Positions 258 to 34,984 of a DNA stretch of 64,000 nucleotides are shown piece by piece. Under the pieces are notes generated by a model that did no database searches, was not told the DNA's origin, and worked only from the letters and a program-made list of their open reading frames with translations. Position numbers and translations under genes: made by a program. Numbering within the stretch: the stretch's first letter is position 1; each line of letters begins with the position of its first letter. This DNA is from Candidatus Altiarchaeota archaeon (lineage in GTDB: Archaea; Altiarchaeota; Altiarchaeia; IMC4; SCGC-AAA252-I15): the NCBI GenBank assembly GCA_043800705.1, contig JAZDMS010000010.1, positions 96,001 through 160,000 on the forward strand. Reading direction: 5' to 3'.

Positions 258-1709
258 CTAACCGTCCCTCGCTGCCAAAGACGCCATATGCCCCCTCAGG
301 ACCGCCGCCGTCCCCCTGATCAGGAGCTTCAGGTCGTGAACGTTCCTGACCGCGGACAGCTTCTTGAATATGAACTTCGGCCTGAAGTAGACCTCCTTCC
401 AGGCGCTCTCGCACATGGCGACTATCTCCTTCGCGGACATGTTCGGGTTCAGAAGCGACGGCTCGCTCATGTCGAACCTCTCCCACTCACCCTCCGGATA
501 GCGGAGCCACCCGCTATTCTTCGCCTCCTCGAACAGCTTCGTCCCCGGATACACGATAGGTATCGAGAACTGGACGGTGTCGACGTCCAACTCCTTGACG
601 AATTCGATGGTCTTGCGCATGTCCTCGCGGTTCTCCCACGGGTAGCCTATCATCACGGTCCCGTGGCGCATGATCCCCGCCTCCTTCGCCGCCTTGAACC
701 CGGCCCTGACCTGCTCCACCGTGTATCCTTTCTGTATCCTCTCCAGCGTTTTCGGGCTTGCGCTTTCCACCCCGAACTTTATGAGCCTGCACCCAGACGA
801 CTTCATAGTCTTCAAAAGCTCGAGGTCGACGTTGTCGACGCGGCCATTGCAGCTCCAAACGACCCTTATACCCCTCTCCTTGATGCCGCTGCAGAAGTCC
901 ATCAGCCACTGGCGGTCGCAGGTGAATGTGTGGTCGTCGAAGAATATCTCCCTGAGCCCGTGCTTGGCGATGACCTCCTGCATCTCGTCAAGGACCCTCT
1001 TCACGCCCCTGAACCTGACCTTGTTCGAATAGAGCATCTGCGGCCACGAACAGAAGGTGCACCTGTACGGGCAGCCGCGTGAGGCCATCATGTACGCGAA
1101 CTCGTCGTGGAGCCTCCACGATTCGTGGTAGTTGCGCCAGGGTATGATCTCCCTGTCGATGAAGGGAAGGCTGTCGAGGTCTTCGAGGAGTTCGTATCTG
1201 CCTGTGTCCATTACCTTGCCGCCTTCGCGGTAGTATGTCCCTGCGGGAAGGGGTGAGCCCTTGTCAAGGTGCCTTGCGAGCTTGAGCATGCTGATGTCGA
1301 AGTCCCCGCCGGTAAGGACGTAGTCGACCTTCGAGTTCTCCAGCGTCTCCCTAGGGAGGACGGAGACGTGGTCCCCGCAGACGGCGACCTTAAGGCCGGG
1401 GAGCCTTTCCTTTATCCTGCCGACTGTCTCCCAGCTTCCCTTTATCGTCGGCGTCTTCGCCTCGTAGACCAAGAGGTCAGGCTTGAATCCCTCGAGGCGC
1501 GAAATAAACTCCTCGTCAGAGAGGGACTCGTAGATGGAGTCGACGAAACCCACGTCGTAGCCTTCGGCCTTCCACTGGGTGACGCCGCTTGCAGGGATCA
1601 TGGGATATATGAGCTCCCTGTCGCCCCTCATCTTCGCGAAACGGTTCTGGCTGACTGTGATATATCCCCTCTCGCTGCGGAAAGGCATGTATGCGAAGAC
1701 CGTCCTCAT
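258..1709 (-). CDS. B12-binding (class B-like) radical SAM protein
   Basis: SRGCPYRCTFC CxxxCxxC motif, N-terminal cobalamin-binding-like domain (VCGDHVSVLP), FGVES and GYPWE motifs. Confidence 0.9.
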   Translation of the reverse strand: MRTVFAYMPFRSERGYITVSQNRFAKMRGDRELIYPMIPASGVTQWKAEGYDVGFVDSIYESLSDEEFISRLEGFKPDLLVYEAKTPTIKGSWETVGRIKERLPGLKVAVCGDHVSVLPRETLENSKVDYVLTGGDFDISMLKLARHLDKGSPLPAGTYYREGGKVMDTGRYELLEDLDSLPFIDREIIPWRNYHESWRLHDEFAYMMASRGCPYRCTFCSWPQMLYSNKVRFRGVKRVLDEMQEVIAKHGLREIFFDDHTFTCDRQWLMDFCSGIKERGIRVVWSCNGRVDNVDLELLKTMKSSGCRLIKFGVESASPKTLERIQKGYTVEQVRAGFKAAKEAGIMRHGTVMIGYPWENREDMRKTIEFVKELDVDTVQFSIPIVYPGTKLFEEAKNSGWLRYPEGEWERFDMSEPSLLNPNMSAKEIVAMCESAWKEVYFRPKFIFKKLSAVRNVHDLKLLIRGTAAVLRGHMASLAARDG

Positions 1710-2668
1710 AGATTCACCCTGCTCACTTTGACCTCCGAATCCCCTCTCTTACCCAGCCCCAGAACCTGCATAAGCAGGCCCCAGACGAAACCTGCCCCGT
1801 ACGACACATGTATCGTCGGATAAAGCAGCCACATAATCGGGAAAATCAACGGTTCCCCTCTCTTGGCCGCGCTCCTGAGGCTTTCCAGGCCGGTGAAGGT
1901 TAAGTATAGCAACAAGGGCATTAAATATGCTGCCGAATCAGAAGCCAGGACGACCGGTGCCGCCGATAACAGATACGCGGCAAAGAGCGACGGCATCGCG
2001 AAAACGGGCTTGAATGAAGTCGGCTGTATGATCATCTGTTCCATCCTCCCGCGGCCGTAGCTCACGTTCTTCCTGATCACCCCCAATATCGTCGACGCCC
2101 TGCTGTGGTAGACCAAGGATCTGGGCTCGTAGATCATCCTGTGACCCTTTGATGCAAGCCTGTTGAAGAACTCGTTCTCCTCGTTGGGGAAGAGATCGGG
2201 TCGTAGGCCGCCCTCATTGAGGTAGACGTCCCTCCTGCATGTGAGGTTGCATAGTACGAGTCTGGTCTCGTCCGCTTCGCATGTGTCCCCTATGGGCTTG
2301 AACCTGTACCTCATCCCCGCCGCGCCGATGTAGGACTCCATCGTGTACCCGAAGCACCGTGCGATGAGGGGGTCGTCTTCCGGCGTTATCATCGGCCCTC
2401 CGACGGCGGCGACACCCTCCTTGCCAAAATGGGGGAGGAAATGCTCCAGTACGTCGGGCGCGACGATGACGTCGTCGTCGAGGAAGTAGACTATATCGCC
2501 CTTCGCCTTCCTCACGGCCTCGTTACGCTGCTTCGAGGGCGAGCGGCCCTGGGCGACGATGACCTCCTTCAGCTTCTTCGGGTAATCTATCCTTCTGATG
2601 GACTTTACGCAGACGTCCGGCTTCAGCCCCGGCCCGATCGGTATGATGAAACTTATCCTGTGCTGCAT
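1706..2668 (-). CDS. Glycosyltransferase family 2 with C-terminal TM helices
   Basis: ISFIIP, RNEAV..AKGDIVYFLDDD (DxD), NEENEF; hydrophobic C-terminus; 4-nt overlap with downstream gene. Confidence 0.88.
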   Translation of the reverse strand: MQHRISFIIPIGPGLKPDVCVKSIRRIDYPKKLKEVIVAQGRSPSKQRNEAVRKAKGDIVYFLDDDVIVAPDVLEHFLPHFGKEGVAAVGGPMITPEDDPLIARCFGYTMESYIGAAGMRYRFKPIGDTCEADETRLVLCNLTCRRDVYLNEGGLRPDLFPNEENEFFNRLASKGHRMIYEPRSLVYHSRASTILGVIRKNVSYGRGRMEQMIIQPTSFKPVFAMPSLFAAYLLSAAPVVLASDSAAYLMPLLLYLTFTGLESLRSAAKRGEPLIFPIMWLLYPTIHVSYGAGFVWGLLMQVLGLGKRGDSEVKVSRVNL

Positions 2669-2692
2669 GCTAATCCGCTATGTTGGATAAGT

Positions 2693-3028
2693 CTAAGGAA
2701 ACCCAGTTTTTATACGCGATGGCGGAACCTGCAAGCACCTGCGGCATATCGCCAAAATGAACATCAGCATCGATATCGCGACCATAGTCTCGGCAGGGAC
2801 TCCGACCGGACGAAGCGCCAACGAGAGGGCCTTCCTTGAGAAAAGGGCCGCAGCGAATGCGCCTAGGGCGGCCAATGCCGCGGCGACCGCGGTGGCGTTC
2901 ACCTCCCCCCGTAATTATGATGGCGAGGAAGGCGTAGCCTGCGCAGGCGGAGAGGACGAGGTCCTGGAAAGCACGAGCGCGAATATCGCTATCCCGACGA
3001 CCGACAGGTACTTCGTGGATATCTTCAT
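2693..3028 (-). pseudogene. Remnant of a lysylphosphatidylglycerol-synthase-TM / flippase-like (UPF0104) membrane protein
   Basis: MKISTKYLSVVGIAIFALVLSR N-terminus, then hydrophobic segments in shifted frames (LVLSACAGYAFLAIII; GVPAETMVAISMLMFILA); far shorter than the family; sits between two GT2 genes. Confidence 0.5.
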
Positions 3029-3036
3029 AAGCAAAC

Positions 3037-3735
3037 CTAGACCGTCAGCCTCAGCCTTATCACAGCGAACGGGTATGCTAGGATGATCCTCCAATTCAGC
3101 TTCGAGGACCCGGACGCCCTCGGATTGAATACGATCGGTATCTCCCTCATCATGAAGCCCGCCTTCTTGCACCTGTAGAGTATCTCCGCGCCCACGGAAT
3201 ATCCGGTCGATATGAAATGGTCCAGGTCGATGGACTTGAGCACATCGGCCCTGTAGCATTTGTACCCCCCGCTCGAGTCCTTTACCGGCAGGCCGAGGAC
3301 GAATATGTTGAAATAGTTGGCGAACTTGGAAAGCAGGTGCTGAATGTGAGCCTTCGTCTTCGTGCCCCCGCCTTCTACGTACCTTGAGCCGACTACGACG
3401 TCGGTGCCTTCGATCCCCCTAAGCATCGCCGGGATGTACTTTGGGTCGTGGCTGAAGTCCGCGTCCATCTCTATCACGACATCGTAGCCGTTTTCGATCG
3501 CATACCTGAATCCGGCCGTCCCAGCGCTCGTGCGCCCGCGGACCCCCTTCCTCGAAAGAAGATGGATCCTCGGCTCCCCCCTCGACATCTCCCGCACGAT
3601 CCCGCCGGTGCCGTCCGGGCTGTCGTCATCCACGACTACGGCCTCGATCCTCCCATCCTGCGAAAGCACCTCCTCCAGGAGCCTGCCAATATTCCCGGCC
3701 TCGTTGTACGTGGGCACCATTGCGATCGGCCTCAT
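3037..3735 (-). CDS. Polyprenol/dolichol-phosphate hexose synthase (DPM1-like GT2)
   Basis: MVPTYNEAGNI, VDDDSPDGT, EMDADFSHDP, VVGSRYVEGG motifs; start trimmed to MRPIAM. Confidence 0.9.
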   Translation of the reverse strand: MRPIAMVPTYNEAGNIGRLLEEVLSQDGRIEAVVVDDDSPDGTGGIVREMSRGEPRIHLLSRKGVRGRTSAGTAGFRYAIENGYDVVIEMDADFSHDPKYIPAMLRGIEGTDVVVGSRYVEGGGTKTKAHIQHLLSKFANYFNIFVLGLPVKDSSGGYKCYRADVLKSIDLDHFISTGYSVGAEILYRCKKAGFMMREIPIVFNPRASGSSKLNWRIILAYPFAVIRLRLTV

Positions 3736-3787
3736 CAGAGAATCATCTGAATCATCGAATAAATATCTATCCGGTACAATACCTACC

Positions 3788-4972
3788 ATGCGGATACTCT
3801 ATCTGACGCGCCAGAGGTTCCTGCCTCCGGAAGACCGGGAGGGCGAGGTCGACAGGAACATCGTGGCCAGGATGGTCTCCCGGGGCCACGAGGTGACCGT
3901 GCTCGCCCCCCATGAGCTCGGCGAGGAAGAGGTCAAGCAGGTGCAGACGAGGCACAACATACGCCTCATACGATTCATCGGCCATGGAGCGTCCCGAAGC
4001 CCGACGGAGAGCCTCTCAGCAGCCGTAACCTTCTGCATCCTCGCCTCCTTCAAGCTCTTGACGATCAGGCTGACGGAAAGATACGACATAGTGTTCCTCT
4101 CGGACGCTCCGGCCGTAAGCCCCGCAATGTTCATTCGAAGGCTGGACGGCAGCCTCTTCGCGATCAACCTGACAGACTTCATCTCCAGGCTGTCAGGTCG
4201 CGGCGGAAAAGGCCTCGGATTCCTGGGCAGGGCGCTATTCAGGCTCGAATGCCTGTCCATCTCGATGTTCGACCTGGCGTTCGCCCCTTCGCCGCAGATG
4301 AAGATGCTCCTTGTCCAAGGAGGGTGTACGCCGAGCAAGTTGCACGTGGCATACAGCGGCGTAGACACATGCCGCTTCAGCGCGCAGTCCGTCGACGACA
4401 AGGATGTCGGCTGGATCAGGATGGAATGCGGCATAGAGCGGAGGATAATCCTATACAACGGATCACTCGAAGGCGGAATATCAGACCGGTTCAAGGCCAT
4501 AGCGGAGGAGGTGCTGAGCGCAAATAACGACGTCACATTCCTGATATTCGGCGAGGGGTCCAGCTACGGCCGCCTCAAGAGCGAGATCCAGTCAGACAAC
4601 GTCAAATTCGTCGGCCCCATGCCGCCGGACCTGTATATGGCCTACGTTTTCGCCGCAAACGCCGGGCTGGTCCTCACTGACGAGTCCTTCGAGAACGAAT
4701 ACCGCGTGCCGCCGCAGATATTCGAGTACCTGTCGATCGGCCTGCCAGTGGCGAGCACCGGTTCCAGGGCGATCAGTGAGCTGTTTCGCGTGCACGACTT
4801 CATCCGTCTATCTGATTCCCCCAAGGAGCTTGCGAATTTCCTCATCGAACTGATAGACCGGCCCAAATCAGACGACGCCGTCAACCTAGTCAGGGAACGC
4901 CACAGCTGGGAGGCCATAGCCACCAACATAACCGAGATAGTCGAGCTGAAAGCCGGAAAGAACAGCATGTGA
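3788..4972 (+). CDS. Glycosyltransferase family 4 (GT-B), divergent
   Basis: MRILYLT, GHEVTVL, SGVDT..F, PPQIFEYLSIGLPVAST, HSWEAIA motifs. Confidence 0.82.
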   Translation: MRILYLTRQRFLPPEDREGEVDRNIVARMVSRGHEVTVLAPHELGEEEVKQVQTRHNIRLIRFIGHGASRSPTESLSAAVTFCILASFKLLTIRLTERYDIVFLSDAPAVSPAMFIRRLDGSLFAINLTDFISRLSGRGGKGLGFLGRALFRLECLSISMFDLAFAPSPQMKMLLVQGGCTPSKLHVAYSGVDTCRFSAQSVDDKDVGWIRMECGIERRIILYNGSLEGGISDRFKAIAEEVLSANNDVTFLIFGEGSSYGRLKSEIQSDNVKFVGPMPPDLYMAYVFAANAGLVLTDESFENEYRVPPQIFEYLSIGLPVASTGSRAISELFRVHDFIRLSDSPKELANFLIELIDRPKSDDAVNLVRERHSWEAIATNITEIVELKAGKNSM

Positions 4973-5141
4973 CTGAGGCTCGAAGCGGAAAAGACTCAGA
5001 AGGGAAGCCGCCCTTTCAGCCGTAATGCGGTTGGAGGGGGTGTGGGCCTACAACCCCCTCCGTGGGTGGTCTAATTACGCATTTACCCCATCAGTAGCTT
5101 AACGTAAGCTATTGACGTATAGTCTAGTACTCCTATATGCG

Positions 5142-5172
5142 TTTAAGTATCTACGTTTCCTAAGGGAAAGTA
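5142..5172 (+). promoter_or_regulatory. TATA-like box followed by an imperfect palindrome (candidate HxlR autoregulatory operator)
   Basis: TTTAAGTA at 5142-5149, then TACGTTTCC-taag-GGAAAGTA immediately before the ATG at 5176. Confidence 0.4.
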
Positions 5173-5175
5173 AGC

Positions 5176-5490
5176 ATGATAAAGAAACCAAAACAGACGG
5201 GCATCCTGGAATTCCTCGCCTCGAAGAAATGGATGCTCCTTGTGCTCACCGAGCTGCACTTCCACGGCACGCAGAGGTTCAGCGAGCTTCTTGAAAACCT
5301 CCGCAACGTCAGCCCGAAGATACTGTCCAAGCGCCTGAAGGAGCTTGAGGAGAGGGGGCTGATAACGAGGCAGCGGTTCAACGAGATCCCCCCCCGCGTC
5401 GAATACACGCTGACCCAGAAGGGCGGCGAGCTGGTCAAGTCATTCAAGGACGTCGGCAAATGGGCGCTCGAATGGGAAAGCGGGCCCTAA
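5176..5490 (+). CDS. HxlR-family winged-helix transcriptional regulator
   Basis: KWMLLVL, RFSEL, VSPKILSKRLKELEERGLITR, PPRVEYTLTQKG. Confidence 0.93.
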   Translation: MIKKPKQTGILEFLASKKWMLLVLTELHFHGTQRFSELLENLRNVSPKILSKRLKELEERGLITRQRFNEIPPRVEYTLTQKGGELVKSFKDVGKWALEWESGP

Positions 5491-6020
5491 CCAAGCGATT
5501 CCAGGACGCAGCGGAATTCCAGAGTCCAATCCTTCTCGCTCACCCTCCTGCCCCCCTTCACCAGCCACCGCCTGATCTCATCGACGTCCACGGAAGAGGT
5601 ATTGTCCGCCTCGAAAACATTCCGGCAACGGCCGACGCTCTCATAGAGTATGATGCCGGAATACTCAGCCTCGATGTTCTCCATCATCTTCTCCCTGGAA
5701 TACCCGCGTTCGCGCATCCTCTCCTGAAGGAGCCTGGGATCGCAGCGCAGGACGAGGATGTGCGTAACATCAAGGAGGTGGCTGACGAGGCCGTCCAAGA
5801 TGACGTTCCCTTGTCCTGCATTTTTCAAATGTGCCCTCAGCCGCTTCACATCCACAATCCTCGTGTCCCTAGCCTCGTCATAGCCCGCTAAGAGCCCGGC
5901 CTCATCGGCCAATTCGTTCAGGCCAATGACCTTTGCGCCGAGGATGGGGCCCAGCCTCCCTGAGAGGGTCGTCTTCCCTGTGCACGGGACACCCGACACT
6001 GCAAGCGCGAAAGGCTTCAT
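5487..6020 (-). CDS. Archaeal adenylate kinase (AK6/Fap7-like)
   Basis: P-loop GVPCTGKTT, VLRCDP..L.ERM..RGYSREK..ENIEAE. Confidence 0.85.
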   Translation of the reverse strand: MKPFALAVSGVPCTGKTTLSGRLGPILGAKVIGLNELADEAGLLAGYDEARDTRIVDVKRLRAHLKNAGQGNVILDGLVSHLLDVTHILVLRCDPRLLQERMRERGYSREKMMENIEAEYSGIILYESVGRCRNVFEADNTSSVDVDEIRRWLVKGGRRVSEKDWTLEFRCVLESLG

Positions 6021-6066
6021 CTCTTTGTAGGCAGATATTTAACCTATTGCATGTATATCTAAAACA

Positions 6067-6411
6067 ATGGCGGATATCAGGTTCAGCCGGGTTCTTGCGG
6101 TGATTCTTCTCCTGCCGCAACTGGCGGCCGCGACGACGATGTCGGACATCATCTGCAGCATCATGGGCCCCATCTTTACGACCCTCTTCGCCGCCGGGGG
6201 GACGCTCGTCGTCATAATGTTCATCTACGGAGGGATAAAATACGTCTACGCCTCCGACGACCCCGGCGGCAGGAAGGAGGCGAAGAACATCTGCATCCAC
6301 ACACTTGTCGCGGGGATACTGATGGTCGTCGCCGTCTCTGCAGTCCGCCTGCTTGGCGCCACCTTCATAACCTACATCTGCCCAAGCATCAGGGCCAGCA
6401 CCGGACTATGA
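6067..6411 (+). CDS. TrbC/VirB2-like pilin paralogue 1
   Basis: Signal peptide ending AAA; two hydrophobic helices joined by YGGIKYVYASDDPGGRKEAK; YICP near C-terminus. Confidence 0.7.
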   Translation: MADIRFSRVLAVILLLPQLAAATTMSDIICSIMGPIFTTLFAAGGTLVVIMFIYGGIKYVYASDDPGGRKEAKNICIHTLVAGILMVVAVSAVRLLGATFITYICPSIRASTGL

Positions 6412-6491
6412 TCTGAATACGGGCCTTCCCCGCACCGTTCACTTTTAACCTCATCCGGTGAATATCATCACATATTCTTCAGAAGTGTTTT

Positions 6492-6875
6492 ATGGAAAAG
6501 TACAATGTTACGGGCGTTTTAAAGGCTTATCGGACTATGCTGACTGTTTTCGTAGTGGCCCAGCTTCTATTCATCATACTGCCCATAAACGCAATGGCGG
6601 GTACCGCAGTCCCGACCGGAACTCTCGCGATGAGGAACACGGTGTGCCGGATCCTCGATGCCATTGAATTCGTGATCACGGCATTGGGCTCAAGCCTAGT
6701 CATCATCATGTTCACCTACGGCGGCCTGAAATACGTGTTCGGAGCCGACGACCCCGGCGCAAGGAAACAGGGAAAGAATACATGTATCCACTCGGTCATC
6801 GGCGGCATAATCATCGTCATCGCGTCCCTGGTCGTGAACATGATCGGCTTCACGGCTGCCATGTCATGTCCCTGA
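6492..6875 (+). CDS. TrbC/VirB2-like pilin paralogue 2
   Basis: Signal ending AMA; YGGLKYVFGADDPGARKQGK; ends SCP. Confidence 0.7.
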   Translation: MEKYNVTGVLKAYRTMLTVFVVAQLLFIILPINAMAGTAVPTGTLAMRNTVCRILDAIEFVITALGSSLVIIMFTYGGLKYVFGADDPGARKQGKNTCIHSVIGGIIIVIASLVVNMIGFTAAMSCP

Positions 6876-6926
6876 GGAGTCTTTCAGCACCGAAGATGTT
6901 CAATCGCCACGGAGGGGTTAGCGAGG

Positions 6927-7274
6927 ATGTTTAACGCGATTAACCGGATGATGGCCCGAAGAAGGCTGGCTTTTTTAATAGTCCCCCTGTCCCTGCTTCC
7001 CTCGATTGCAGACGCCACGGCGATCACGTTCAAACCCCTCGTCTGCACCCTTCTCCTCGAGGTACGGGCCGCAGTCAGGACGGCGGGAGCGTCGTTGGTC
7101 GTGATAATGTTCATCTACGGCGCCGTCAAATACGCGTTCTCGGCAGACGACCCGGGCGGCAGAAAATCCGGCAAAATGACCTGCATACACGCCCTTATAG
7201 GCGGAATACTCATAGTATTGTTCGAGGTCATCCAAACCCTAGTGTCTTTGACCTGGTGGGGGACGTGCCCATGA
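6927..7274 (+). CDS. TrbC/VirB2-like pilin paralogue 3
   Basis: Signal ending ADA; YGAVKYAFSADDPGGRKSGK; ends TCP. Confidence 0.7.
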   Translation: MFNAINRMMARRRLAFLIVPLSLLPSIADATAITFKPLVCTLLLEVRAAVRTAGASLVVIMFIYGAVKYAFSADDPGGRKSGKMTCIHALIGGILIVLFEVIQTLVSLTWWGTCP

Positions 7275-7612
7275 ACCTTAAACAACAGGCGAAACGCGCA
7301 TTGGCGGCGATAATGCTCAGCGGTGCAGCGTCCGCCACATTGACGCCGATCCACGCGGTCCCCTGCGCCGTGATCGAGGCCATGTGGGAGGCAGTAAGGT
7401 CGGTTGCGCCGATGATCTTCGCGATAATGTTCCTCTACGGCGCCGCCAGATACGTCTACTCCGCAGATGATCCGGGCGGAAGGAAGCAGGGGAAGAACAT
7501 CATCATACACGCGATCATAGGGGTGCTGATCATGGGCGTCCTCGTCGCGATCGTCTCGATAATGACTAATTTAGGCGACTTTCCCCTCTGTCCAGGGATC
7601 ACCATCACATGA
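7271..7612 (+). CDS. TrbC/VirB2-like pilin paralogue 4
   Basis: ATGA overlap with paralogue 3; signal ending ASA; YGAARYVYSADDPGGRKQGK; LCP near C-terminus. Confidence 0.7.
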   Translation: MNLKQQAKRALAAIMLSGAASATLTPIHAVPCAVIEAMWEAVRSVAPMIFAIMFLYGAARYVYSADDPGGRKQGKNIIIHAIIGVLIMGVLVAIVSIMTNLGDFPLCPGITIT

Positions 7613-7974
7613 AAACAATTCAAGGGAAACTGATGCGGGCTGCCGCGGCAGGAGCCCTAATGCCCTACGCACTTGCGCAGGCGGTCTCGGCGGCCTATCT
7701 GACTGTGATAAACGGCTTCATATGCTCCCTGATAGGGTCATTCCAGATAATGGGGAACTCCATAGCCATCATAATGTTCGTCTACGGGGGCATAAAGTAC
7801 ATCTACACCGCCGACGACCCGGGCGGCAGGAAACAGGCCATGGGGATATGCGTCGCAGCAATAATCGCGATGATAATCATCCAGGCAGCGAGGGGAGTCA
7901 TAGGGGAGATAGGGCAGATCATAATAACAACCGCAGGATTCGCTGCCGGTTCAGTGGCGGATCCGTGTCCATGA
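7609..7974 (+). CDS. TrbC/VirB2-like pilin paralogue 5
   Basis: ATGA overlap with paralogue 4; signal ending VSA; YGGIKYIYTADDPGGRKQAM; ends PCP. Confidence 0.7.
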   Translation: MKTIQGKLMRAAAAGALMPYALAQAVSAAYLTVINGFICSLIGSFQIMGNSIAIIMFVYGGIKYIYTADDPGGRKQAMGICVAAIIAMIIIQAARGVIGEIGQIIITTAGFAAGSVADPCP

Positions 7975-7978
7975 AAAA

Positions 7979-8311
7979 ATGAAAATGAGAAAAACCTTGT
8001 TGGGGCTGTCGGCGGCGGCGTTTTTTGCACAGTCGGTTTCCGCCACCGCACCCGACGCTGCGACCATAATCAGAAACATCATCTGCACCCTCATACCGGA
8101 GGTCATCAACCTGTCATGGGCGCTGGCGGTCCTGGTCTTCGTATACGGCGGCGCCAAATACGCCCACGCGGCGGACGACCCCGGCGGAAGAAAGCAGGGC
8201 AAGAGCATCGCACTCAATGCCATCATCGGTTTCATAATAATCGCGGCATCCAAGGCAGTGGTTGAGGCAATCGCTTTCGCCGGTGGTACGGGAAACATCT
8301 GCCCGCCTTAG
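7979..8311 (+). CDS. TrbC/VirB2-like pilin paralogue 6
   Basis: Signal ending VSA; YGGAKYAHAADDPGGRKQGK; ends ICPP. Confidence 0.7.
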   Translation: MKMRKTLLGLSAAAFFAQSVSATAPDAATIIRNIICTLIPEVINLSWALAVLVFVYGGAKYAHAADDPGGRKQGKSIALNAIIGFIIIAASKAVVEAIAFAGGTGNICPP

Positions 8312-8317
8312 GCGCAT

Positions 8318-11221
8318 CTATCCTGTCGAGGTGGCATTCGCCGGTTGCCTGTCGAATCCTTCATAGCTGATCTCGTATGAGCGCACAAAACCGTAGCTGA
8401 ACTCGCCGTCTGGCGTCCCGTCGCCGTCGTAGTCGGGTATCTGCCTGAAGTGCAGCAGCGGCTTCACTTCCCGTGTGTACAGCCCGTACCTCCTGTATTC
8501 GTCGAGGTATTTGCCGAGGTACAGCCTCGTCGTCATGAAGTCGTTGAACTCCTGGGGCACGTAGACGAGCGTTTTGAACTGCGGCAGATTGCATATGCTT
8601 CCCCTCGGCAGGCTGTTCCAGTTCAGGGCGCAGTAGAGGATGCTCGGTATCTCCTCTTCCTCGTTTACGCGAAGGAGGGGCTGTACCCCCAGGAGCGAGG
8701 CGTCGTTGGCCTTGCTCCACTTGTCCCACGGTATGTGGTTGCCGTAGGGGTCGACCGCTGTTATGCCCCTTATCCCGCTGCCTTCGAGCTCGAATATGAC
8801 GCCTGAAACGTACCCCTGGCACCCGAAAACGACCTGCCTCACCTTGGAGAAGCTGCCGTTCTGGGAGACCGATATCCGCTCTTCGAGCTGGCTCTGTGCC
8901 GGGAGGAACTGGCACTCTGCGTAGTTCTTCCAGGAGCCGGGAGTCACGTCCTCTATGTTGCCTGTGGCGATGAAGTGCAGGGCGCTTCCCTTGCCGATCA
9001 TCGTCCAATCGATGGCCGCATACCTGAGGCCCCAGCTCTGGTTATAATCCCTGTAGGCCTTGTCGTACGCCTTGACCATCTCGAACGCCTCCTCCTCCGA
9101 CGTCTTGTTCTCGAAGAACGTCGCCACGTCCTGTATCTCGTAGTAGTCGGCCTGGAGGTTGTCTATGAGGACTGGCCTGTGGGAGACTGCCGTAATCCAG
9201 TGGCCGTAGTCCCACCACGTGAGTATGGCGTCGCCGGGGCCCGTATTGTTCGCGTGCCATTCGAGCATCGGGTACCAGTAGAATATGTCCTCGGTGGGGC
9301 CCATGTGGAGCACGACGTATCCGACGGCCTTGGAGTAGAGGGCCGGGCCGAACATGGGGACGTAGGCGATTGGGATGCATATGACGAGGATCGTGCCTAT
9401 GATCCTCAGGCTTTCGAGGTCGCTTTTCTTTATAGTTGAAAACAGGCCTATTGTGGCCCCCAATGCGGTTATCGACGCGCTTGAGGCGAATATCCAGGCG
9501 CTCTTGTTGTAGGCACCCCACATCATCGGGATGCTCCATGTCAGGATGAAGAGGGCGCCGATGCTGCCTGTAGAATATACGATGTAGGCCATCAGCGGTA
9601 TGGTGATGATGGAGTACAGGAGCGCTATCCCATACCTATTGTATCCCTGGGTGAGGAATTCGTTGAATGATGAGGCGAGCGGGTTCTGTTCCGCGACCGT
9701 CTGGTGGACTACGCTCTTATCCTTTGCAGAGAGTATCACCTGGGCCGCGAAATCGACGAGGTCGGTGGGCGTCTTATAGAACGCAAGGATTATCCCCGCA
9801 AGTATCAGCGCGACTATGCCGAGGGCGATGACGTTCTTCTCTATGGCGTCCACTGTCCTGTCCTCGATGGAAGCCCCTCCCGTGAGCTGCATGCCCCTGC
9901 TTTTCACCCTTATCATCTCCAATATGAGGGAGAGGCATAAGGTCGCCGCTATGGGGTAAAGCTCGTTCGGGGACATCGAAGGGAAAATCCATGCACCGCC
10001 CCTGGCATGCACCATCGTCCCCATCAGGTTGTATACGATGACCGGTATCAGTATGTACGGCAGATGCTCTATGGCGTTCTTGTTGTGTGCCAACCTCACG
10101 AAGGCATATAATGTGCCGAACGTGCCTATCGTCATCATGGCGTATGCGCTGCCAGCCCAGCTCATCCTGAGCATCAGGGCGGCAATGCCGGTCAGGAGCG
10201 CATACCTGAAGCTCTTCCTCTGATATGAGGCGAAGAAAAGGAAGAGGGTGGCAACCATGAGGAACATCCCGAAGGAGTCGTCTTCTGGGTTGGTGGCCGT
10301 GGCGTTCGCCGCAAGAGCCGGGCTCAGCATGAGCATGAACGCGGCAAGGAGCGCCGCCAACTTGTTGTACGGCCTCATGTCCGAGAACATCTCCTTGACG
10401 AGGAGGTACATGACGACGACCGTCAGGGCTGCTAGTATCCCCGGGAAGAGCATGGCGACCTGAAACATGGAGACGCCGAGGGGATCCAGGGCCAAGGCGA
10501 GCCCCGTGTAGCTGATCTGCATCATCATGGGGGAATCCGATTGTACGAGGCCGAATGTGGTCGGCCTCTGGCTCGTGTATGCCAGGTCCGAGCTGTGGCT
10601 GAGCCCCCCGTACATGGGGTACACCAGCGGGTCGTATTCCGGCGGGTAGCCAGTGTTGTATATGACCTGCATCCACTTGTAGTGCCAGTATGAGTCAAGG
10701 TTAGCCAGCAGGTTGGCGTTGGCGGGGACCAGGTGCAGAAGGAGCGCCGCGAGGAAGAGCGCCAAGACCATGGAAAACTCCACGTTGACGACCTTGTGGT
10801 AGCTCAGCGCATAGAATAAGGCGAAAATCGCCGCCATGATGCTGAAATAGGGGTAATCGACGTTCTGCGGATACCCGTATGCGTTCGAGTAGTATGAGAA
10901 CACCCCCGAAATGAGTATGAGTATCGGTATGCCCCAGCTCCACTGGTCCGACCTCAAAGCCTGCTGGCTGAAGACGGCATAAGCGCTCAGGATCCCGAGC
11001 ACGATCAGCATCAGCGGCCCGCCGTCGTAGAAGAAGCCGCTCGTCATCGGCTTGATGCATGCAAGGGTCAGTGCGAGCAGAGCCGCCAGAAGGAGGGGTT
11101 TGGTGAACTGGCCGAAGACTCCTTCGAATGCGCCGAGGGAGAGCGTTATCGACTGACTGTCGCCTTCCGGATCGGTTATCTTATCCCCCGGCGTATCCCG
11201 CGCTTTTTTAGAAGAAGCCAT
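8318..11221 (-). CDS. aglB: Oligosaccharyltransferase AglB/STT3
   Basis: Multi-TM N-terminus with LDSYWHY, TVAEQ (TIXE-like), canonical WWDYG motif; start trimmed to MASSKK. Confidence 0.92.
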   Translation of the reverse strand: MASSKKARDTPGDKITDPEGDSQSITLSLGAFEGVFGQFTKPLLLAALLALTLACIKPMTSGFFYDGGPLMLIVLGILSAYAVFSQQALRSDQWSWGIPILILISGVFSYYSNAYGYPQNVDYPYFSIMAAIFALFYALSYHKVVNVEFSMVLALFLAALLLHLVPANANLLANLDSYWHYKWMQVIYNTGYPPEYDPLVYPMYGGLSHSSDLAYTSQRPTTFGLVQSDSPMMMQISYTGLALALDPLGVSMFQVAMLFPGILAALTVVVMYLLVKEMFSDMRPYNKLAALLAAFMLMLSPALAANATATNPEDDSFGMFLMVATLFLFFASYQRKSFRYALLTGIAALMLRMSWAGSAYAMMTIGTFGTLYAFVRLAHNKNAIEHLPYILIPVIVYNLMGTMVHARGGAWIFPSMSPNELYPIAATLCLSLILEMIRVKSRGMQLTGGASIEDRTVDAIEKNVIALGIVALILAGIILAFYKTPTDLVDFAAQVILSAKDKSVVHQTVAEQNPLASSFNEFLTQGYNRYGIALLYSIITIPLMAYIVYSTGSIGALFILTWSIPMMWGAYNKSAWIFASSASITALGATIGLFSTIKKSDLESLRIIGTILVICIPIAYVPMFGPALYSKAVGYVVLHMGPTEDIFYWYPMLEWHANNTGPGDAILTWWDYGHWITAVSHRPVLIDNLQADYYEIQDVATFFENKTSEEEAFEMVKAYDKAYRDYNQSWGLRYAAIDWTMIGKGSALHFIATGNIEDVTPGSWKNYAECQFLPAQSQLEERISVSQNGSFSKVRQVVFGCQGYVSGVIFELEGSGIRGITAVDPYGNHIPWDKWSKANDASLLGVQPLLRVNEEEEIPSILYCALNWNSLPRGSICNLPQFKTLVYVPQEFNDFMTTRLYLGKYLDEYRRYGLYTREVKPLLHFRQIPDYDGDGTPDGEFSYGFVRSYEISYEGFDRQPANATSTG

Positions 11222-11223
11222 CC

Positions 11224-11916
11224 TCATCTGCCGTATCTGCGTTCCCTGCTTGTGTAGTCCTGGATGACCTTCTTGAGGTCCTCCTTGTCGAATTCCTGCC
11301 AGAGCTTGGGGATGAAATATATCTCGCTGTAGGCGGACTGCCACAGGAGGAAATTGCTCAGCCTGTCCTCGCTCGTCCGTATGATGATGTCCGGGTCGCC
11401 CTTCACCCAGAGGTTCCCGCCGAGGTTCTCCTCGTTTATCTCCTGCCCCTGTTCGATCATCTTCCTGACCGCGTGGATTATCTCCTGCCTCCCACCGTAG
11501 GCGATAGCCAGGTTGAGCTTGAACTTATCGTATCCTTTCGTGGCCTCCTCGAGCCTTTCCATGTTGGCTACCATCTCGGCAGCCAGCTCCCTGTTGACTT
11601 CCTGTTTGCGGAGGAACTCCCTGTCGCCGCAGAGGCTGACCCTGACCTTATTCTCGTGCATGCTCTTGTCCGAGAGCCCCTTAAGGGCGTGCTTGTTGAA
11701 GGCCTTGAAGAGCGTCTCTATCTCCTTCTTGTTCCTGCTCGTTATGTTCTCTGTGGAAAGCGCGTAGAGCGTGACCTCGTCGACTTTGAGGTCGTAGCAC
11801 CACTCCAGGAAGTCGTAGAACCTGTTGATGCCCAAGTCATAAGACACAAGAAGGTCGCCTATGCCCCTCTTGGCCATGAATCTCCTGTTCCCGTCCGGAA
11901 TCAAGCCTATATGCAT
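11224..11916 (-). CDS. uppS: cis-prenyltransferase (UppS family; polyprenyl diphosphate synthase)
   Basis: HIGLIPDGNRR, LYALSTEN, AYGGRQEI, IRTSEDRLSNFLLWQSAYSE, C-terminal RRYG. Confidence 0.95.
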   Translation of the reverse strand: MHIGLIPDGNRRFMAKRGIGDLLVSYDLGINRFYDFLEWCYDLKVDEVTLYALSTENITSRNKKEIETLFKAFNKHALKGLSDKSMHENKVRVSLCGDREFLRKQEVNRELAAEMVANMERLEEATKGYDKFKLNLAIAYGGRQEIIHAVRKMIEQGQEINEENLGGNLWVKGDPDIIIRTSEDRLSNFLLWQSAYSEIYFIPKLWQEFDKEDLKKVIQDYTSRERRYGR

Positions 11917-11984
11917 TTCACACCCAAACTCAACCGATGTCTAAAATATGAGTAAAGATATAAATTAATAGTATAAAACCTGTC

Positions 11985-12461
11985 ATGGCCAAGCTTTCCT
12001 GTGTTTTGGATGCGTCGGGGATCAATCGCAGCAGCCTCGACTTCACCCGGGGCGGATACGGCATACCCTCCTCGGTCCTGTCGGAGCTGAAGGACGAGAG
12101 AGTGCGCTCCAGGGTGGAGGATTCGATAAGGGTCGGCGACGTAACCGTGGTCGCCCCCGGCGGGGATTCCCTGGAAAAGGCATCCGCCACCGCGAAGGAG
12201 ACCGGCGACATATCCTCCCTCAGCAGGCCAGACCTCGACGTCCTAGCGGCCGCGATAGAGCACGGCCTTACGATAGTGTCAGACGACTACGCTATACAGA
12301 ATACCGCAGCCAGGCTCGGCATCAGGGTCGAGGCCACAAGCCAGAAGGCCATCAGCCGCCAGCTCACATGGGTGTGGTCCTGTGAAGGCTGCGGCAGGAA
12401 GATGGAAGGTCCGGGGGCGTGCGGGGTCTGCGGTCACAAGGCGAGGAAGAGGCCGGCTTAG
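11985..12461 (+). CDS. nob1: NOB1-family PIN-domain ribonuclease
   Basis: VLDAS, ETGD...LS.PDLDVLA, SDDYAIQN, C-terminal CEGC...CGVC zinc ribbon. Confidence 0.9.
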   Translation: MAKLSCVLDASGINRSSLDFTRGGYGIPSSVLSELKDERVRSRVEDSIRVGDVTVVAPGGDSLEKASATAKETGDISSLSRPDLDVLAAAIEHGLTIVSDDYAIQNTAARLGIRVEATSQKAISRQLTWVWSCEGCGRKMEGPGACGVCGHKARKRPA

Positions 12462-13859
12462 CCGAACCAGTGCCCTTCGGTCGCCACCTTCAGGTAGTCC
12501 GTGTTCTTGTCTGTGACGCTCTTCGCAGCCGTCTGCCCCATGCTGATGCTGTGGTCCATGTTGTTGTAGCGGAATAGGCCGTTCCTTCCGAAGAAGCGGA
12601 GGTTCTTCACGCCCTTCAGGTGCCCTATGGCCTTGTCGAGGTTGGGCCTGTATTCCAGGTCGTATATGGGGTATGCGTGTGGCATGTAATGTATCCTCGA
12701 ACCCAGGTATTCGCCCTTTTTCACGAGGCCTATGTCGGCAAGGTCGTCCAGCACGCGCTTGGCGAGCGTTTCCTTGTCTGCCTTCCAGGTCTCGTCCCCG
12801 AGCTGACAGGTGATCTCTGCGCCTATTATGGTCTTCCCCTCCGGGGCGTTGCCGGCGGAGAAGTTCCTGGATTCGCTGACGCGGTTGGCGAGGTACTTCA
12901 GCTCCGGGAGGTAGATCCAGTGGTCGGGGCTTATGCCGTCCCTGCCGAACATGAGGTGCACGAGGACAATCGACCTGAATTTTAGGCTGCCTGAGGCCTC
13001 CAACACGTCCTTCGGCGGGCTGGGAGTCAATGCTCCGATGAAATCCGTGATAGGAATCGTCGAAAACACGAGGTCTTCGGGGCCCACGGCGACGGAACCC
13101 CCGGAATAACTGACTTTCGTGATTCTGTCATCCGCCATCTCGATGCCGGTTACTTTTGCGTTGAGCCTGACCTGCCCGCCGGCCTCCCTCATCCGTTTGG
13201 CATATTCCTCACTGATCGCTCCGATACCTCCGTGTGTCGGATAATAGAACCTGCTCACGTACGTCCTCGGCGTGTCCGAGGATTTCATCGCCTTCTTCAG
13301 CGTCTGTACGAAAGTGTCCCACAGGCTCAGTAGGCTGATCCTCTGCGCAGCCCAGTCGGCGCTCAGCCTCGTGCACGGGATGCCCCACGTCTTCTCCGTG
13401 TACACCCTGAAGTAGATGTCGTAGAGCCTCCGGCCGAACCTGTTCACGACCCAGTCCTCGAAGCTGAGATCCGGCGCCTTTGCGAACAGGTTCTTTGCCT
13501 TTATCGCGACGTAGTCCGCGATTATCCTCGCCGTCGTCAACGGCGGCATGTTGAAGAACGCGTTGCCCACCTTCAGGGGGATAGTCGAAGAACCTCCCCT
13601 CGAGCCTTATCCTCGACAGCCTGTCCCTCTCCACGAAGCCCCCCTCCATTATCCTCTTGAACTCGGCGTTCACCCCCTCCTCGTTTGTATGAAACCTGTG
13701 GGGCCCCAGGTCGTAGGTGAATCCGCCGTCTTCGAAGCTCCTAGCCATCCCCCCGACGCCGTCATCGGCCTCCAAGACGACGACGGGGACGCTCTCCATA
13801 GAGAGCGAATAGGCGGCGGAAAGCCCTGCAAGCCCGCCGCCAAGAACGATGACCTTCAT
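12458..13859 (-). pseudogene. FAD-dependent oxidoreductase (protoporphyrinogen oxidase / UDP-galactopyranose mutase-like), split by a +1 frameshift
   Basis: GGGLAGL dinucleotide fold and DLGPHRFH in ORF 13209-13859; YTEKTWG, WAAQRI, GRNGLFRYNNMDHS in ORF 12458-13570; removing one G from G5 at 13576-13580 gives FDYPLKVGNA in frame (may be a sequencing error). Confidence 0.85.
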
Positions 13860-13872
13860 TTTATCGTTGATA

Positions 13873-13893
13873 CCCCGCAGCTCTGCTGCGGGG
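13873..13893. other. Perfect GC-rich inverted repeat between priS and the FAD oxidoreductase gene (hairpin; terminator or operator)
   Basis: CCCCGCAGC-TCT-GCTGCGGGG. Confidence 0.4.
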
Positions 13894-13927
13894 ATGGTTT
13901 ATTTTTTCCATACTATTCGTATCTCCG

Positions 13928-15079
13928 CTATTTAACGGCTACATGCTCTGCCTTGTCCTTCAGCATGAGGTAGACCGCTGCGGCCTCGTCCATCTGCGCC
14001 TCTTCGCCGCTCCGGTAGGGTCCCCAGTCCCTTCCCTTCAGCTGGAACACGCCGACGTCCTTCGTCAGCGCCGCCTTCACGGGGCCGCCGGCGAATGCGA
14101 CCGCATCCGTCAGGGGGTCGAAGGTCTCGAGGTCCGCAACCCTCTTTGCCAGTAGGCCGCTTCCCCCGTGTATGGTGTCCGGCAGCCTGATGAGCCTCGA
14201 TATATCCGCTGTGACCTGTTTGTCTGTGTCCTCCATATCCTTTACTGCGAATTCCTTGACTACCATATCCCTTAAAACCTTGGGGATGATCTCCCTGTGC
14301 CACTTCCCCCTTTCAAGGAAATCAAGATATTTTTCCCTATTCTCTACTATACCCCTCACTTTAAGCTTTGAAAGCCCGTATCTGTCCCTCAGCGTTTGTT
14401 CATCGGAGTTCACAATGCCCTCCATGGTCTTGAATATTCGACCTGCCCATCCATTGTCTTGTCGTTTCGGGCCTACGCCTACTGGGCTCATGATCATTTT
14501 CGGCCTGCCTGCTTTGTACTTTATTCCGCTCGGTGAATCGTCGTCGCGTATGAAAAACTCGATGTCGAGACCCGCACCAGTGATGTAATCCACGATCTCC
14601 CGCCTCGCGTCCGTGTTGAGCGGCTTCACATCATCGGAGCCGACGTGTATGTGGTACCCCTTGCTTCCCGAGAAATTCACGGAAATATCCTTCCTGTCGA
14701 AGCCGAAATCATCCTCAAGGAATGCGAGCAGGTTGCCGGCTTCCGCCTTCACCTCTTCGAGGTGTTTCCCGTTCAGAAGCTCCATCGGCTTGTCGAGGTC
14801 GAAGACGAGGTCCGCGCCCCTCCAGCATTTGTCGGCCATCGGCTGGCTCGGGTACTCGTAGTAGGCGGTCGAATACGATATGTAGTACGGCGCCTCGGTC
14901 TTGAGGTACTGGTTGAGCTCCCTCTCCGTCGCGAAGGCCTTGTGCCTGAACTTGATCTTGTCCTCGAGGGTTCCGACGCCGAACTCCCTCCTGTGGACCT
15001 CCCTCGGCGCGGACACGGAATGGTTCCAGTAGTAGTCTTTGAACCTCTTCTTCAGGAATACCTTTGTTTCCGTGTTCAT
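13928..15079 (-). CDS. priS: DNA primase small (catalytic) subunit
   Basis: RREFG, ADLVFDLD, FSGSKGYHIHV, DKQVTADISRLIRLPDTIHGGSGL. Confidence 0.95.
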   Translation of the reverse strand: MNTETKVFLKKRFKDYYWNHSVSAPREVHRREFGVGTLEDKIKFRHKAFATERELNQYLKTEAPYYISYSTAYYEYPSQPMADKCWRGADLVFDLDKPMELLNGKHLEEVKAEAGNLLAFLEDDFGFDRKDISVNFSGSKGYHIHVGSDDVKPLNTDARREIVDYITGAGLDIEFFIRDDDSPSGIKYKAGRPKMIMSPVGVGPKRQDNGWAGRIFKTMEGIVNSDEQTLRDRYGLSKLKVRGIVENREKYLDFLERGKWHREIIPKVLRDMVVKEFAVKDMEDTDKQVTADISRLIRLPDTIHGGSGLLAKRVADLETFDPLTDAVAFAGGPVKAALTKDVGVFQLKGRDWGPYRSGEEAQMDEAAAVYLMLKDKAEHVAVK

Positions 15080-15119
15080 CCAGACCAAAAGAAATACGCA
15101 TTACCGTAAAAAATAGCCC

Positions 15120-15746
15120 CTAAAGCTCCTTCCTCACCATGTCCTCCGACCCCTCCAGCCTCTCCGGCACGTGGCAGACCTTCCCGGTGACGGTGTGGTA
15201 GAGGAGGGCCAGTATCCTGACCCTGCCGTCCCTGACCTCCCGGTAAAGCTTCGGATACCTGAACATCAGGAAGTTCACGACCGCCTCCCTCTGTATCCTG
15301 CAGCCTTCCTCCAAAAGGAGCTGCTCCAGCTGAGCGTGATCTGGCTTAATCCCCCTTTGGGAAAGGTAGCCGTCGACCCTTACCTTCGCATGCAGGCCTC
15401 CGCCGTCGACGAGGTGCCTCCTGATTTCGGGCTCGGCCTCGTTCGAGACTCCTTCGTAGCCTCCGCAGCGGGTGTGGTGCATGAGGATGATGAGCTCCGG
15501 CTTCAGGTGCGCGAGGGCGTAGACGAGCGCGGCCTTCGCGTCGTCGGTGAACAGGCCCCCGACATTCTTCACCTCGAATATGGTGCCAGGCTCGTTGATG
15601 TCGAATATCTCGTGGACGCTTACCCTGGAGTCGCTGCATGAGAGGCAGAAGACCTTCGGATCCTGTCCTGCGGCGAACCGTTCCCTAAGCCTCCTGAAAT
15701 GCCTAAGATGCCTTCGCCAACCCGTATGCAGGGCCTTGAGCTCCAT
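15120..15746 (-). CDS. Beta-class carbonic anhydrase
   Basis: SCSDSRV and HHTRCGG zinc ligands, VKNVGG. Confidence 0.88.
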   Translation of the reverse strand: MELKALHTGWRRHLRHFRRLRERFAAGQDPKVFCLSCSDSRVSVHEIFDINEPGTIFEVKNVGGLFTDDAKAALVYALAHLKPELIILMHHTRCGGYEGVSNEAEPEIRRHLVDGGGLHAKVRVDGYLSQRGIKPDHAQLEQLLLEEGCRIQREAVVNFLMFRYPKLYREVRDGRVRILALLYHTVTGKVCHVPERLEGSEDMVRKEL

Positions 15747-15806
15747 ATCCCTCTCAATATTGTTCGCGGAGGGCTAAATATAACCCTCTCCGCACATTAT
15801 CCTCAG

Positions 15807-16096: not shown

Positions 16097-16130
16097 GCCT
16101 ATTATAATATCGCCTGCCATAGGATATGGT

Positions 16131-18298: not shown

Positions 18299-18429
18299 TG
18301 TCCCCATCTGTTGCCGCAGGCCCTGCACAGGCACAGGATGGTCCCAAGCTCATGGTGGTTGGAAATGTCGATCTCTATGCTGTTGCAGTACGTGCACCTG
18401 GACACCCTGCGCATTAATCTCTCGTTCAT
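18295..18429 (-). CDS. 44-aa zinc-ribbon microprotein
   Basis: MNERLMRRVSRCTYCNS...CRACGNRWGQ; two CxxC; ATGA overlap with the TOPRIM gene. Confidence 0.6.
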   Translation of the reverse strand: MNERLMRRVSRCTYCNSIEIDISNHHELGTILCLCRACGNRWGQ

Positions 18430-34982: not shown

Positions 34983-34984
34983 AA

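Follow-up and report, generated by a model that had tools for sequence, protein, structure and literature searches.

A tandem array of six small genes in the genome of a Candidatus Altiarchaeota archaeon very probably encodes pilins of the VirB2/TrbC superfamily (Pfam T4SS_pilin), as judged from profile matches and genomic context. The array lies in a 64,000-nucleotide stretch of contig JAZDMS010000010.1 (positions 96,001 to 160,000 of the forward strand; hereafter, the window), on a contig labelled C35 in an assembly of 2.0 Mb and 43 contigs that is 87.6% complete. We favour, with moderate confidence, the reading that these proteins are the Sec-exported pilin set of a vertically inherited, non-conjugative chromosomal machine resembling type IV secretion systems (T4SSs) and encoded elsewhere in the same genome. 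An operon on a second contig, C15, carries a VirB4-like ATPase and further T4SS-like components, and related genomes place an array-type pilin at its head.

The array consists of six plus-strand open reading frames (ORFs) at window positions 6067-8311, encoding proteins of 110-127 amino acids (aa), and the ORF listing agrees with the original prediction of six co-oriented genes at these positions. Gene 1 (6067..6411, 114 aa) belongs to the variable part of the array, outside the supported orthologue clades. It is followed by gene 2 (6492..6875, 127 aa), the protein chosen for structure prediction, and gene 3 (6927..7274, 115 aa), whose tree partner is L024_1 (support 96/94). Gene 4 (7271..7612) encodes 113 aa from its ATG, while genes 5 (7609..7974, 121 aa) and 6 (7979..8311, 110 aa) are the penultimate and last positional orthologues described below. 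ATGA start/stop overlaps at 7271-7274 and 7609-7612 link genes 3-4-5, with the start of gene 5 overlapping the gene 4 stop, just as the original prediction had it; the remaining intergenic gaps are 80, 51 and 4 nucleotides (nt). An upstream GTG at 7256 would extend gene 4 to 118 aa, and ATG 7271 is the most likely start because of the ATGA overlap with the gene 3 stop; the 113-aa form is protein-library entry P0009. A TATA-like, AT-rich octamer read from the printed sequence at 6035..6042 (plus strand) lies 25-32 nt 5' of the gene 1 start codon; it may be an archaeal promoter, giving a transcript with a short leader or none. Scans of the window for tRNAs and Rfam families gave no matches.

All six proteins have a signal of the signal-peptidase-I type and two hydrophobic helices, as had been proposed. 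Read by eye, each leader spans 22-36 residues that run from a basic N-terminus through a hydrophobic core to an (A/V)-x-A site; the predicted cleavage sites of genes 1-6 are AAA, AMA, ADA, ASA, VSA and VSA, and the mature N-termini are polar. Sequence, hydropathy and alignment agree that the two helices follow the signal peptide in six of six proteins, with a short polar or basic loop between them, and AlphaFold2 (AF2) models of gene 2 show the same layout. The alignment of the six pilins (A1) shows an invariant F, Y, G and Y in helix 1 and an invariant DDPG, R and K in the loop, whose near-invariant motif reads YGGxKY..DDPGGRK. All six further share a Cys just past the signal peptide and a Cys-Pro at the C-terminus. 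Mean pairwise identity reaches 69% in the 20-residue loop segment and 29% overall, compared with 14-32% in the five non-loop segments and 21-24% in the predicted outward N- and C-terminal segments, so the description of a near-invariant loop with divergent flanks, or a constant core with variable subunits, holds. At the DNA level, similarity among the paralogues is limited to a stretch of 56-96 nt in the loop (76-88% identity), which points to old duplicates without recent conversion.

Curated family profiles connect these proteins to T4SS pilins. The gathering cut-off of PF18895 (T4SS_pilin) is 26.6 bits, and all six proteins reach it with 34.5, 40.2, 35.5, 31.0, 26.6 and 38.9 bits for genes 1-6, a range of 26.6-40.2 with gene 5 exactly at the cut-off. 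Profile-profile alignment with hhalign matches the array-type profile A3 (70 rows) to a profile of VirB4-adjacent pilins, A4 (8 rows), with 97.8% probability and an E-value of 1e-12, and the first A4 member, a pilin of the C15 operon, itself passes the TrbC/VirB2 model PF04956 (31.9 versus 27.9 bits). Four of the six also match the Mbov_0395 pilin-like conjugal transfer family of NCBIfam (NF045849) below its threshold, at 18.7-24.4 versus 40 bits. A search of 1.84 billion representative proteins with the A1 profile returned 4152 matches at E <= 1e-3 and 241 at E <= 1e-10. The array pattern goes beyond chance because all six members reach the PF18895 cut-off and the same array stands at the same place in relatives. 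These results sustain the identification as VirB2/TrbC-like pilins and, equally, the exclusion of class III (type IV or archaellin) prepilins: the leaders are long, each has its own hydrophobic core, and no Pfam type IV pilin model matches any of the six. For gene 2, AF2 modelling of the full-length protein (72-row alignment; mean predicted local distance difference test, pLDDT, 84.8) places helices at residues 7-36, 44-83 and 88-121, the first being the signal peptide, and the mature form (70-row alignment, pLDDT 87.4) is predicted as a plain antiparallel two-helix hairpin with helices 2-42 and 47-77.

The array also has a recurrent genomic position. Searching with the loop motif, one genome per species, identified 21 related loci, and in eight of them (L023-L030), as well as in locus L052, the pilin genes lie between a Fap7-like kinase gene and the aglB-uppS pair, as they do here. 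These aglB-side arrays hold 4-14 tandem ORF hits, counts that are approximate given that some ORFs overlap, and the aglB-linked arrays span several genera. In a maximum-likelihood tree of 37 pilins (the six described here and 31 from L023-L028, leaving out pilins of L029-L043 and ORFs above 700 nt), one clade of seven (97/94) unites the last genes of all arrays, gene 6 among them, and the penultimate genes form a separate clade of seven (98/93) that includes gene 5; the bootstrap had not fully settled, so support values are rough. Genes 1-4 fall outside these clades, in a group with little resolution that includes lineage-specific expansions, L025_2/3/4 among them. Identity to the orthologues in six genomes is 47-59% for gene 6 and 38-56% for gene 5, the same range as for the neighbouring AglB (49-60%) and Fap7 (44-57%) in those genomes. 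Rapid evolution of the array was ruled out on this ground, and diversification of the virus-evasion type, which had been suggested, finds no support in two genes as conserved as their housekeeping neighbours. As far as the sequences indicate, the array comprises two stable, specialised subunits (genes 5 and 6) and a lineage-variable set (genes 1-4), a composition more in keeping with a mixed filament of specialised subunits than with antigenic variants that can replace one another.

The candidate machine is a T4SS-like operon on C15 (locus L044, G000:C15:52000-71897), whose genes occupy locus positions 2228-18610 on the minus strand between housekeeping genes. In transcription order it encodes p445, a 2025-aa protein, p247, p170, p700, p421, a PrgI-like protein, a VirB4-like ATPase and two pilins. 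The ATPase (757 aa, L044:3189-5462, minus strand) matches P-loop_TraG at 89 bits and AAA_10, and in the PDB it matches VirB4 (4ag5) at E 4.8e-32 and TrwK at 4e-4. The PrgI (VirB3-like) protein has 375 aa, and its C-terminal part matches models of the VirB4 N-domain; its best NCBIfam match, the Mbov_0397 VirB4 family (NF045975), stays below threshold at 51.9 versus 590 bits. A signal peptide and 5-6 membrane spans each are predicted for p445 and p700, p445 having about five and being overlapped by 77 nt by the 2025-aa protein. The two C15 pilins score 43.4 and 39.6 bits against PF18895. Genome-wide, this model yields 14 matches at E <= 0.01, nine of them over the cut-off: the six array genes, the two on C15 and one within a 1207-aa frame on C9.

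Several features of the machine genes vary. Residues ~590-756 of the VirB4-like protein form a C-terminal extension without a Pfam match, which in relatives also appears as separate frames of 183-238 aa (G048:C85, G050:C4, G042:C7). The giant gene is present here as two overlapping ORFs, p445 and p2025, and in relatives as a single ORF of 1630-1770 aa; the split could be a frameshift, an assembly error or real. Giant VirB6-like paralogues of 688-2342 aa also lie outside the operon, at C9:104126-107746 (minus), C9:14706-18983 (plus), C9:18980-26008 (plus) and C42:37629-39695 (minus), with a pilin-like or p445-like N-terminal membrane domain. A second VirB4, in the form of a full-length VirB3-VirB4 fusion of 1104 aa, stands alone among unrelated genes on C14 (L045:9427-12741, plus strand), near a histidine kinase, a MoxR ATPase and a PilB/T2SSE-type ATPase. 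Full-length copies of this C14 type (frames of ~1,100 aa), 33-35% identical to the C15 VirB4, occur in four other genomes, all of the same genus; second VirB4 copies, 38-43% identical, occur in four genomes of other genera (family f1). The C14 protein is a less likely partner of the array because its full-length copies are genus-restricted while the array synteny spans the family.

Related genomes connect the array-type pilins with the C15-type operon. Operons were fetched from G038 and G039, of the same genus, and G050, of the same family, and in three of three the first gene is an array-type pilin that matches the A1 profile at E ~1e-19. It is followed by a giant p445/p2025-like gene, p170, p700, p421, the PrgI-VirB4N gene, VirB4 and two or three TrbC-type pilin genes. 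An array-type pilin also lies directly 5' of the giant/p170/p700 genes in seven of the 21 loop-motif loci (L031, L033, L034, L037, L038, L040, L041); six of the 21 show neither an aglB-side array nor an operon-head pilin within the fetched DNA. Across 61 genomes of the phylum, the pilin family occurs in 47 and a C15-type VirB4 in 45, with both in 44, neither in 13, and VirB4 without the pilin in one (G006, 70% complete). That a C15-type VirB4 machine serves the array pilins is a fairly likely conclusion from this co-occurrence and gene order. The array is no orphan, contrary to the impression the window gives, and the proposed genome search for VirB4- and VirB6-like genes delivered its first half, the VirB4 on C15, together with two proteins that are VirB6-like in topology.

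The evidence on mobility points towards inheritance with the chromosome. As originally reported, the window has no VirB4, relaxase or integrase; Pfam matching of the whole genome for these families places none on C35. The array and the C15 operon are both flanked by housekeeping genes, in keeping with the chromosomal, housekeeping setting described for the array, where integrase, relaxase and coupling protein were not found. The two relaxase families searched, PF03432 and PF08751, have no match in this 87.6% complete genome, nor does the coupling-protein model TraG-D_C (PF12696), and the P-loop hits to PF02534 are three proteins that Pfam assigns to HerA. The genome's sole match to tyrosine recombinases (PF00589) lies on C17. 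The C15-type VirB4 is 60-85% identical across the order, which fits a vertically inherited core function and not a mobile element. A machine with no relaxase, coupling protein or mobile-element marker found and a vertically inherited VirB4 does not look like a plasmid conjugation system, and classical conjugation is unlikely.

A conserved pair of cysteines may tie the two ends of each subunit together. Of 70 pilins in which the loop can be recognised, 65 carry both an N-side and a C-terminal Cys, three have neither and two have one only. The N-side Cys lies 30 or 34 residues before the loop and the C-side Cys 37-51 residues after it, near the C-terminus; five of the 70 have two Cys on each side. 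The covarying pair is probably a disulfide that ties the N- and C-terminal ends, the simplest reading given that both positions fall at the same end of the predicted hairpin. Such a link brings to mind the head-to-tail cyclisation that some bacterial pilins reportedly undergo; for VirB2, Beltran et al. contest it.

Many of the best matches to the A1 profile are poly-pilins. P0001, P0003, P0004, P0005 and P0012 are proteins of 430-1775 aa with 4-16 tandem hairpin repeats, laid out as a single N-terminal signal peptide followed by repeats of Cys, helix 1, loop, helix 2 and Cys-x-Cys, joined by short Cys-bearing linkers of 15-25 residues. Internal signal peptides are absent from them, and some end in a Cys-rich domain. 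With two spans per repeat, their topology is self-consistent. A genome of the same order carries an example with six repeats, an 871-aa ORF at L050:8407-11022 on the minus strand.

These observations allow a working model of the array. The six pilins would be inserted through the Sec pathway and cleaved by signal peptidase I, leaving mature proteins of ~85-90 residues that pool in the cytoplasmic membrane as helical hairpins. A C15-type machine, made up of a VirB3-like protein fused to the VirB4 N-domain, the VirB4 ATPase, two polytopic VirB6-like proteins (one of them giant) and two TrbC-type pilins, may then extract the hairpins and assemble them into a pilus or a short conduit. By analogy, the basic loop would face the lumen, in contact with lipid head groups, with the divergent N- and C-terminal segments facing outside and their ends tied by the disulfide of the covarying cysteines. 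Solved conjugative pili of the F and T types show this loop-in-lumen orientation. The role might be cell-cell contact or the exchange of DNA or other cargo, as proposed for the Ced and Ted systems and for the Patescibacteria T4SS. A broader version of the model is tentative and, on balance, doubtful: an order-wide, vertically inherited, relaxase-less machine that makes a new archaeal class of surface filament or conduit, built from mixed, specialised hairpins stapled end to end by disulfides, supplied in some lineages as a polyprotein of up to 16 pilins, and used for cell-cell exchange within biofilms or with episymbionts.

A number of results weigh against the pilin assignment or the link to the C15 machine. 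None of the six proteins reaches the PF04956 cut-off of 27.9 bits; the best are gene 2 (25.6) and gene 1 (15.7), and the rest have no match. A tblastn search of 72,556 plasmids with pilin 2 found no match at E <= 1, and a profile search of PDB sequences ranked TrwL, the VirB2 homologue of R388, at E 0.33, behind two unrelated proteins. (The same plasmid search with a C15 pilin gave five matches at E 0.03-0.6, of which three carry a TrbC/VirB2 family annotation, and was set aside as too weak for use.) Foldseek comparison of the full-length and mature models with the PDB returned nothing at E <= 1e-3, and none of the matches listed is a T4SS pilin; the best rows are generic hairpins, among them ATP synthase subunit c and stator proteins, all at E > 0.7, with non-significant TM-scores of 0.63-0.66 (normalised by target length) for the subunit c type. 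A two-helix hairpin weakly matches many things, so this result neither supports nor refutes the assignment: the fold comparison proposed earlier with T4SS pilins could be carried out on two models and proved uninformative, and the family assignment rests on profiles and genomic context rather than on fold. At the level of the machine, the window itself contains no VirB4 or other machine gene, the C15 operon of this genome lacks the head pilin of its relatives, and p445 and p700 are assigned as VirB6-like by topology, with no Pfam match for either and no PDB sequence match for p700. The pilin occurs with no VirB4 match in three genomes (G044, 82% complete; G021, 92%; G022, 73%), and the 13 genomes with neither gene are three whole families, so that they count as roughly a single evolutionary event instead of 13. 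The cysteine pairing is also imperfect, as six further pilin rows have an extra N-side Cys without a C-side partner.

Whether the array pilins build an extended extracellular filament is close to an even call, leaning slightly to the negative. An alternative, itself unlikely, is that they are T4SS-family pilin-like subunits that form no extended pilus: they would oligomerise within the membrane or immediately above it, contributing to a translocation channel or making a ring or a short stub, which may be what pilin-like proteins of wall-less or monoderm MPF-FATA systems do. The VirB3/VirB4 parts are closest to the MPF-FATA type by sub-threshold NCBIfam matches, and the nearest NCBIfam models for them and for the pilins alike are families of Mycoplasma integrative and conjugative elements (ICEs); we know of no long pili in systems of the MPF-FATA type. 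Chains of 4-16 repeats behind one signal peptide would fit more readily into a fixed ring or bundle than into a polymer that grows by free subunits, and the poly-pilins in general count to some degree against a classical free-subunit pilus and for a fixed oligomer. The best Foldseek geometry is also that of ring-forming hairpins, ATP synthase subunit c, although it is not significant, and rows at E > 0.7 carry no weight. Yet the six array genes are separate, each with its own signal peptide, and the accessible text of PMC12102498 discusses the Patescibacteria arrays of the same Pfam families as pilins.

The two remaining explanations assign the array a different purpose. It could be a repertoire for surface variation, with interchangeable major pilins expressed alternately to change adhesion or escape viruses, as proposed for Bartonella, Anaplasma and Patescibacteria arrays in the accessible part of PMC12102498. 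The contrast between N- and C-terminal segments 21-24% identical among paralogues and a loop at 69%, together with copy numbers of 4-14 across genomes and expansions such as L025_2/3/4, would fit such a repertoire. It is nevertheless improbable, since genes 5 and 6 have one-to-one orthologues in six other genomes, conserved like AglB and Fap7, and the ATGA coupling of genes 3-4-5 argues for co-expression over alternation. There is also no sign of recent gene conversion or cassette exchange, with no further look taken for invertible or recombination elements. A role in the N-glycosylation or dolichol cluster, in which small lipid-binding membrane proteins handle lipid-linked glycans and have nothing to do with secretion, is very improbable. 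The array does abut aglB-uppS in eight of the 21 loci and in L052, across several genera, and glycosyltransferase genes lie upstream of it; however, the Pfam, NCBIfam and profile-profile links all lead to T4SS pilins, in relatives pilins of this type stand first in VirB4 operons that lie away from aglB, and order-level relatives (L031-L043, L050) have pilins without a nearby aglB. A pilin set for the C15-type machine is the reading that we carry forward.

The immediate neighbours of the array are a transcription factor, a kinase and the glycosylation genes. An HxlR-family transcription factor (5176..5490, plus strand, 88.5 bits) also adjoins the array in L023 and L025, and the divergent upstream neighbour, a Fap7-like small kinase (AAA_18 by Pfam; 5487..6020, minus), recurs in L023, L025, L027, L028 and L052. 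On the other side, the convergent AglB/STT3 oligosaccharyltransferase gene (8318..11344, minus; STT3 48.8 bits, AglB_core 27.1) ends 6 nt past gene 6 and stands beside the array in L023-L030 and L052. Its true start probably lies downstream of the listed GTG, because the listed ORF overlaps uppS, the gene of a cis-prenyltransferase of the undecaprenyl/dolichyl diphosphate synthase family (11224..11916, minus; Prenyltransf 204 bits), which is a conserved partner of aglB and is present in six related loci. The pilins were considered as AglB substrates and rejected, as the six proteins hold only two N-x-S/T sequons, one in a cytoplasmic leader and one inside helix 1. A second AglB/STT3 paralogue is encoded elsewhere in this genome (G000:C20:68344-71193, plus), with a phmmer score of 1181 bits to the AglB of the window. 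Two paralogous B12-binding radical SAM genes lie at window positions 258-1709 and 47177-48565, both on the minus strand and each beside glycosyltransferase genes. Low-GC stretches at 28000-36000 and 44000-50000, falling to 0.37 and 0.46 versus ~0.57 elsewhere, hold Pfam-less ORFs, radical-SAM enzymes, a nitroreductase, a PMT_2-type glycosyltransferase and a GT2 enzyme, with no integrase seen in them; they are possibly acquired islands for cell-surface or cofactor functions.

If the model is correct, a Patescibacteria-like building plan would be a core, vertically inherited trait across a whole archaeal order. To our knowledge, structures of conjugation-type pili in archaea come only from Ced and Ted, both of hyperthermophilic Thermoproteota. 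Few uncultivated archaea can be collected from nature as almost pure biofilms, and the order includes some of these, so the prediction could be tested directly by cryo-electron microscopy and proteomics. The invariant loop should mark the lumen and the lipid contact, the covarying Cys pair may replace the debated head-to-tail cyclisation of bacterial pilins, and the natural poly-pilin fusions constrain the possible subunit packings. Should the machine move DNA or nutrients between cells, it would bear on gene flow and symbiosis in subsurface communities.

Comparison with other archaeal systems leads first to Ced (CedA1) and Ted (TedC), the DNA-import pili of Thermoproteota (PMC9905601). By the descriptions accessible in that source, they too are archaeal and chromosomal, combine a VirB2-like pilin with a VirB6-like protein and a VirB4-like ATPase, and belong to no mobile element; TedC has a predicted signal-peptidase-I site, and Ced and Ted components may lie at separate loci (PMC9905601). 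In contrast to the array described here, each has a single pilin gene, and the Ted loci contain HerA, Rad50 and ParA genes, none of which was seen beside the array or the C15 operon. Giant VirB6-like proteins and a PrgI-type VirB3, present here, do not figure in those Ced/Ted descriptions (PMC9905601).

Bacterial relatives offer two further points of reference. The host-interaction systems of the intracellular pathogens Bartonella and Anaplasma contain pilin arrays whose variety is thought to serve antigenic or receptor variation. As at the present locus, VirB2-type pilins of a single T4SS have been tandemly amplified and have diverged, their core staying constant while the exposed parts vary; the two distal copies here, in contrast, are stable between genomes, with no sign of rapid turnover. 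Multi-copy virB2/trwL pilin genes are noted for Bartonella (Trw) and Anaplasma in the accessible text of PMC12102498. The Mbov_0395 and Mbov_0397 families of Mycoplasma ICEs supply the best NCBIfam matches of four of the six pilins and of the VirB3/VirB4-N protein, but the scores here are far under the cut-offs, and those families occur on mobile elements with relaxases.

The closest known parallel is found in Patescibacteria. The original prediction regarded the array as the best candidate in the window for an undescribed system; PF18895 had already been curated, and, in the accessible part of PMC12102498, tandem VirB2-like arrays are reported for this group, with 441 arrays of 2-11 genes in 383 assemblies and a mean identity of 25% (maximum 54%). 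Those arrays were found with the same Pfam families, PF18895 and PF04956, and resemble the present one in low mutual identity (mean 25% there, 29% here), in chromosomal location and in a VirB4 with a PrgI/VirB3-like partner and mostly no relaxase (PMC12102498). The description that emerges from that text, at least two diverged PF18895/PF04956 genes in a relaxase-less VirB4 genome, applies here as well, with an archaeon as host. One of the 21 loop-motif loci (L043) is in fact a Saccharibacteria contig. A search for literature linking Altiarchaeota with T4SS pilins or VirB4 found none, though archaeal homologues may appear in supplementary tables to PMC12102498 and PMC9905601. The locus can be seen as the archaeal counterpart of the Patescibacteria pilin arrays, apparently undescribed for these archaea.

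The differences from the Patescibacteria arrays lie in host, position and composition. Here the host is an Altiarchaeota-group archaeon whose genome measures ~2 Mb; there it is an ultra-small bacterial epibiont. Here the array occupies a fixed, aglB-side housekeeping locus away from virB4, its last two genes are positional orthologues, and an N-to-C Cys pair covaries. VirB4 occurs here in a split form on C15 and a VirB3-fused form on C14, whereas PMC12102498 states that its data set contains no VirB3-VirB4 fusions. Besides the poly-pilins of relatives, it is the aglB-side locus, the positional orthologues, the Cys pair and the split and fused forms of VirB4 that distinguish this archaeal system from its bacterial counterpart.

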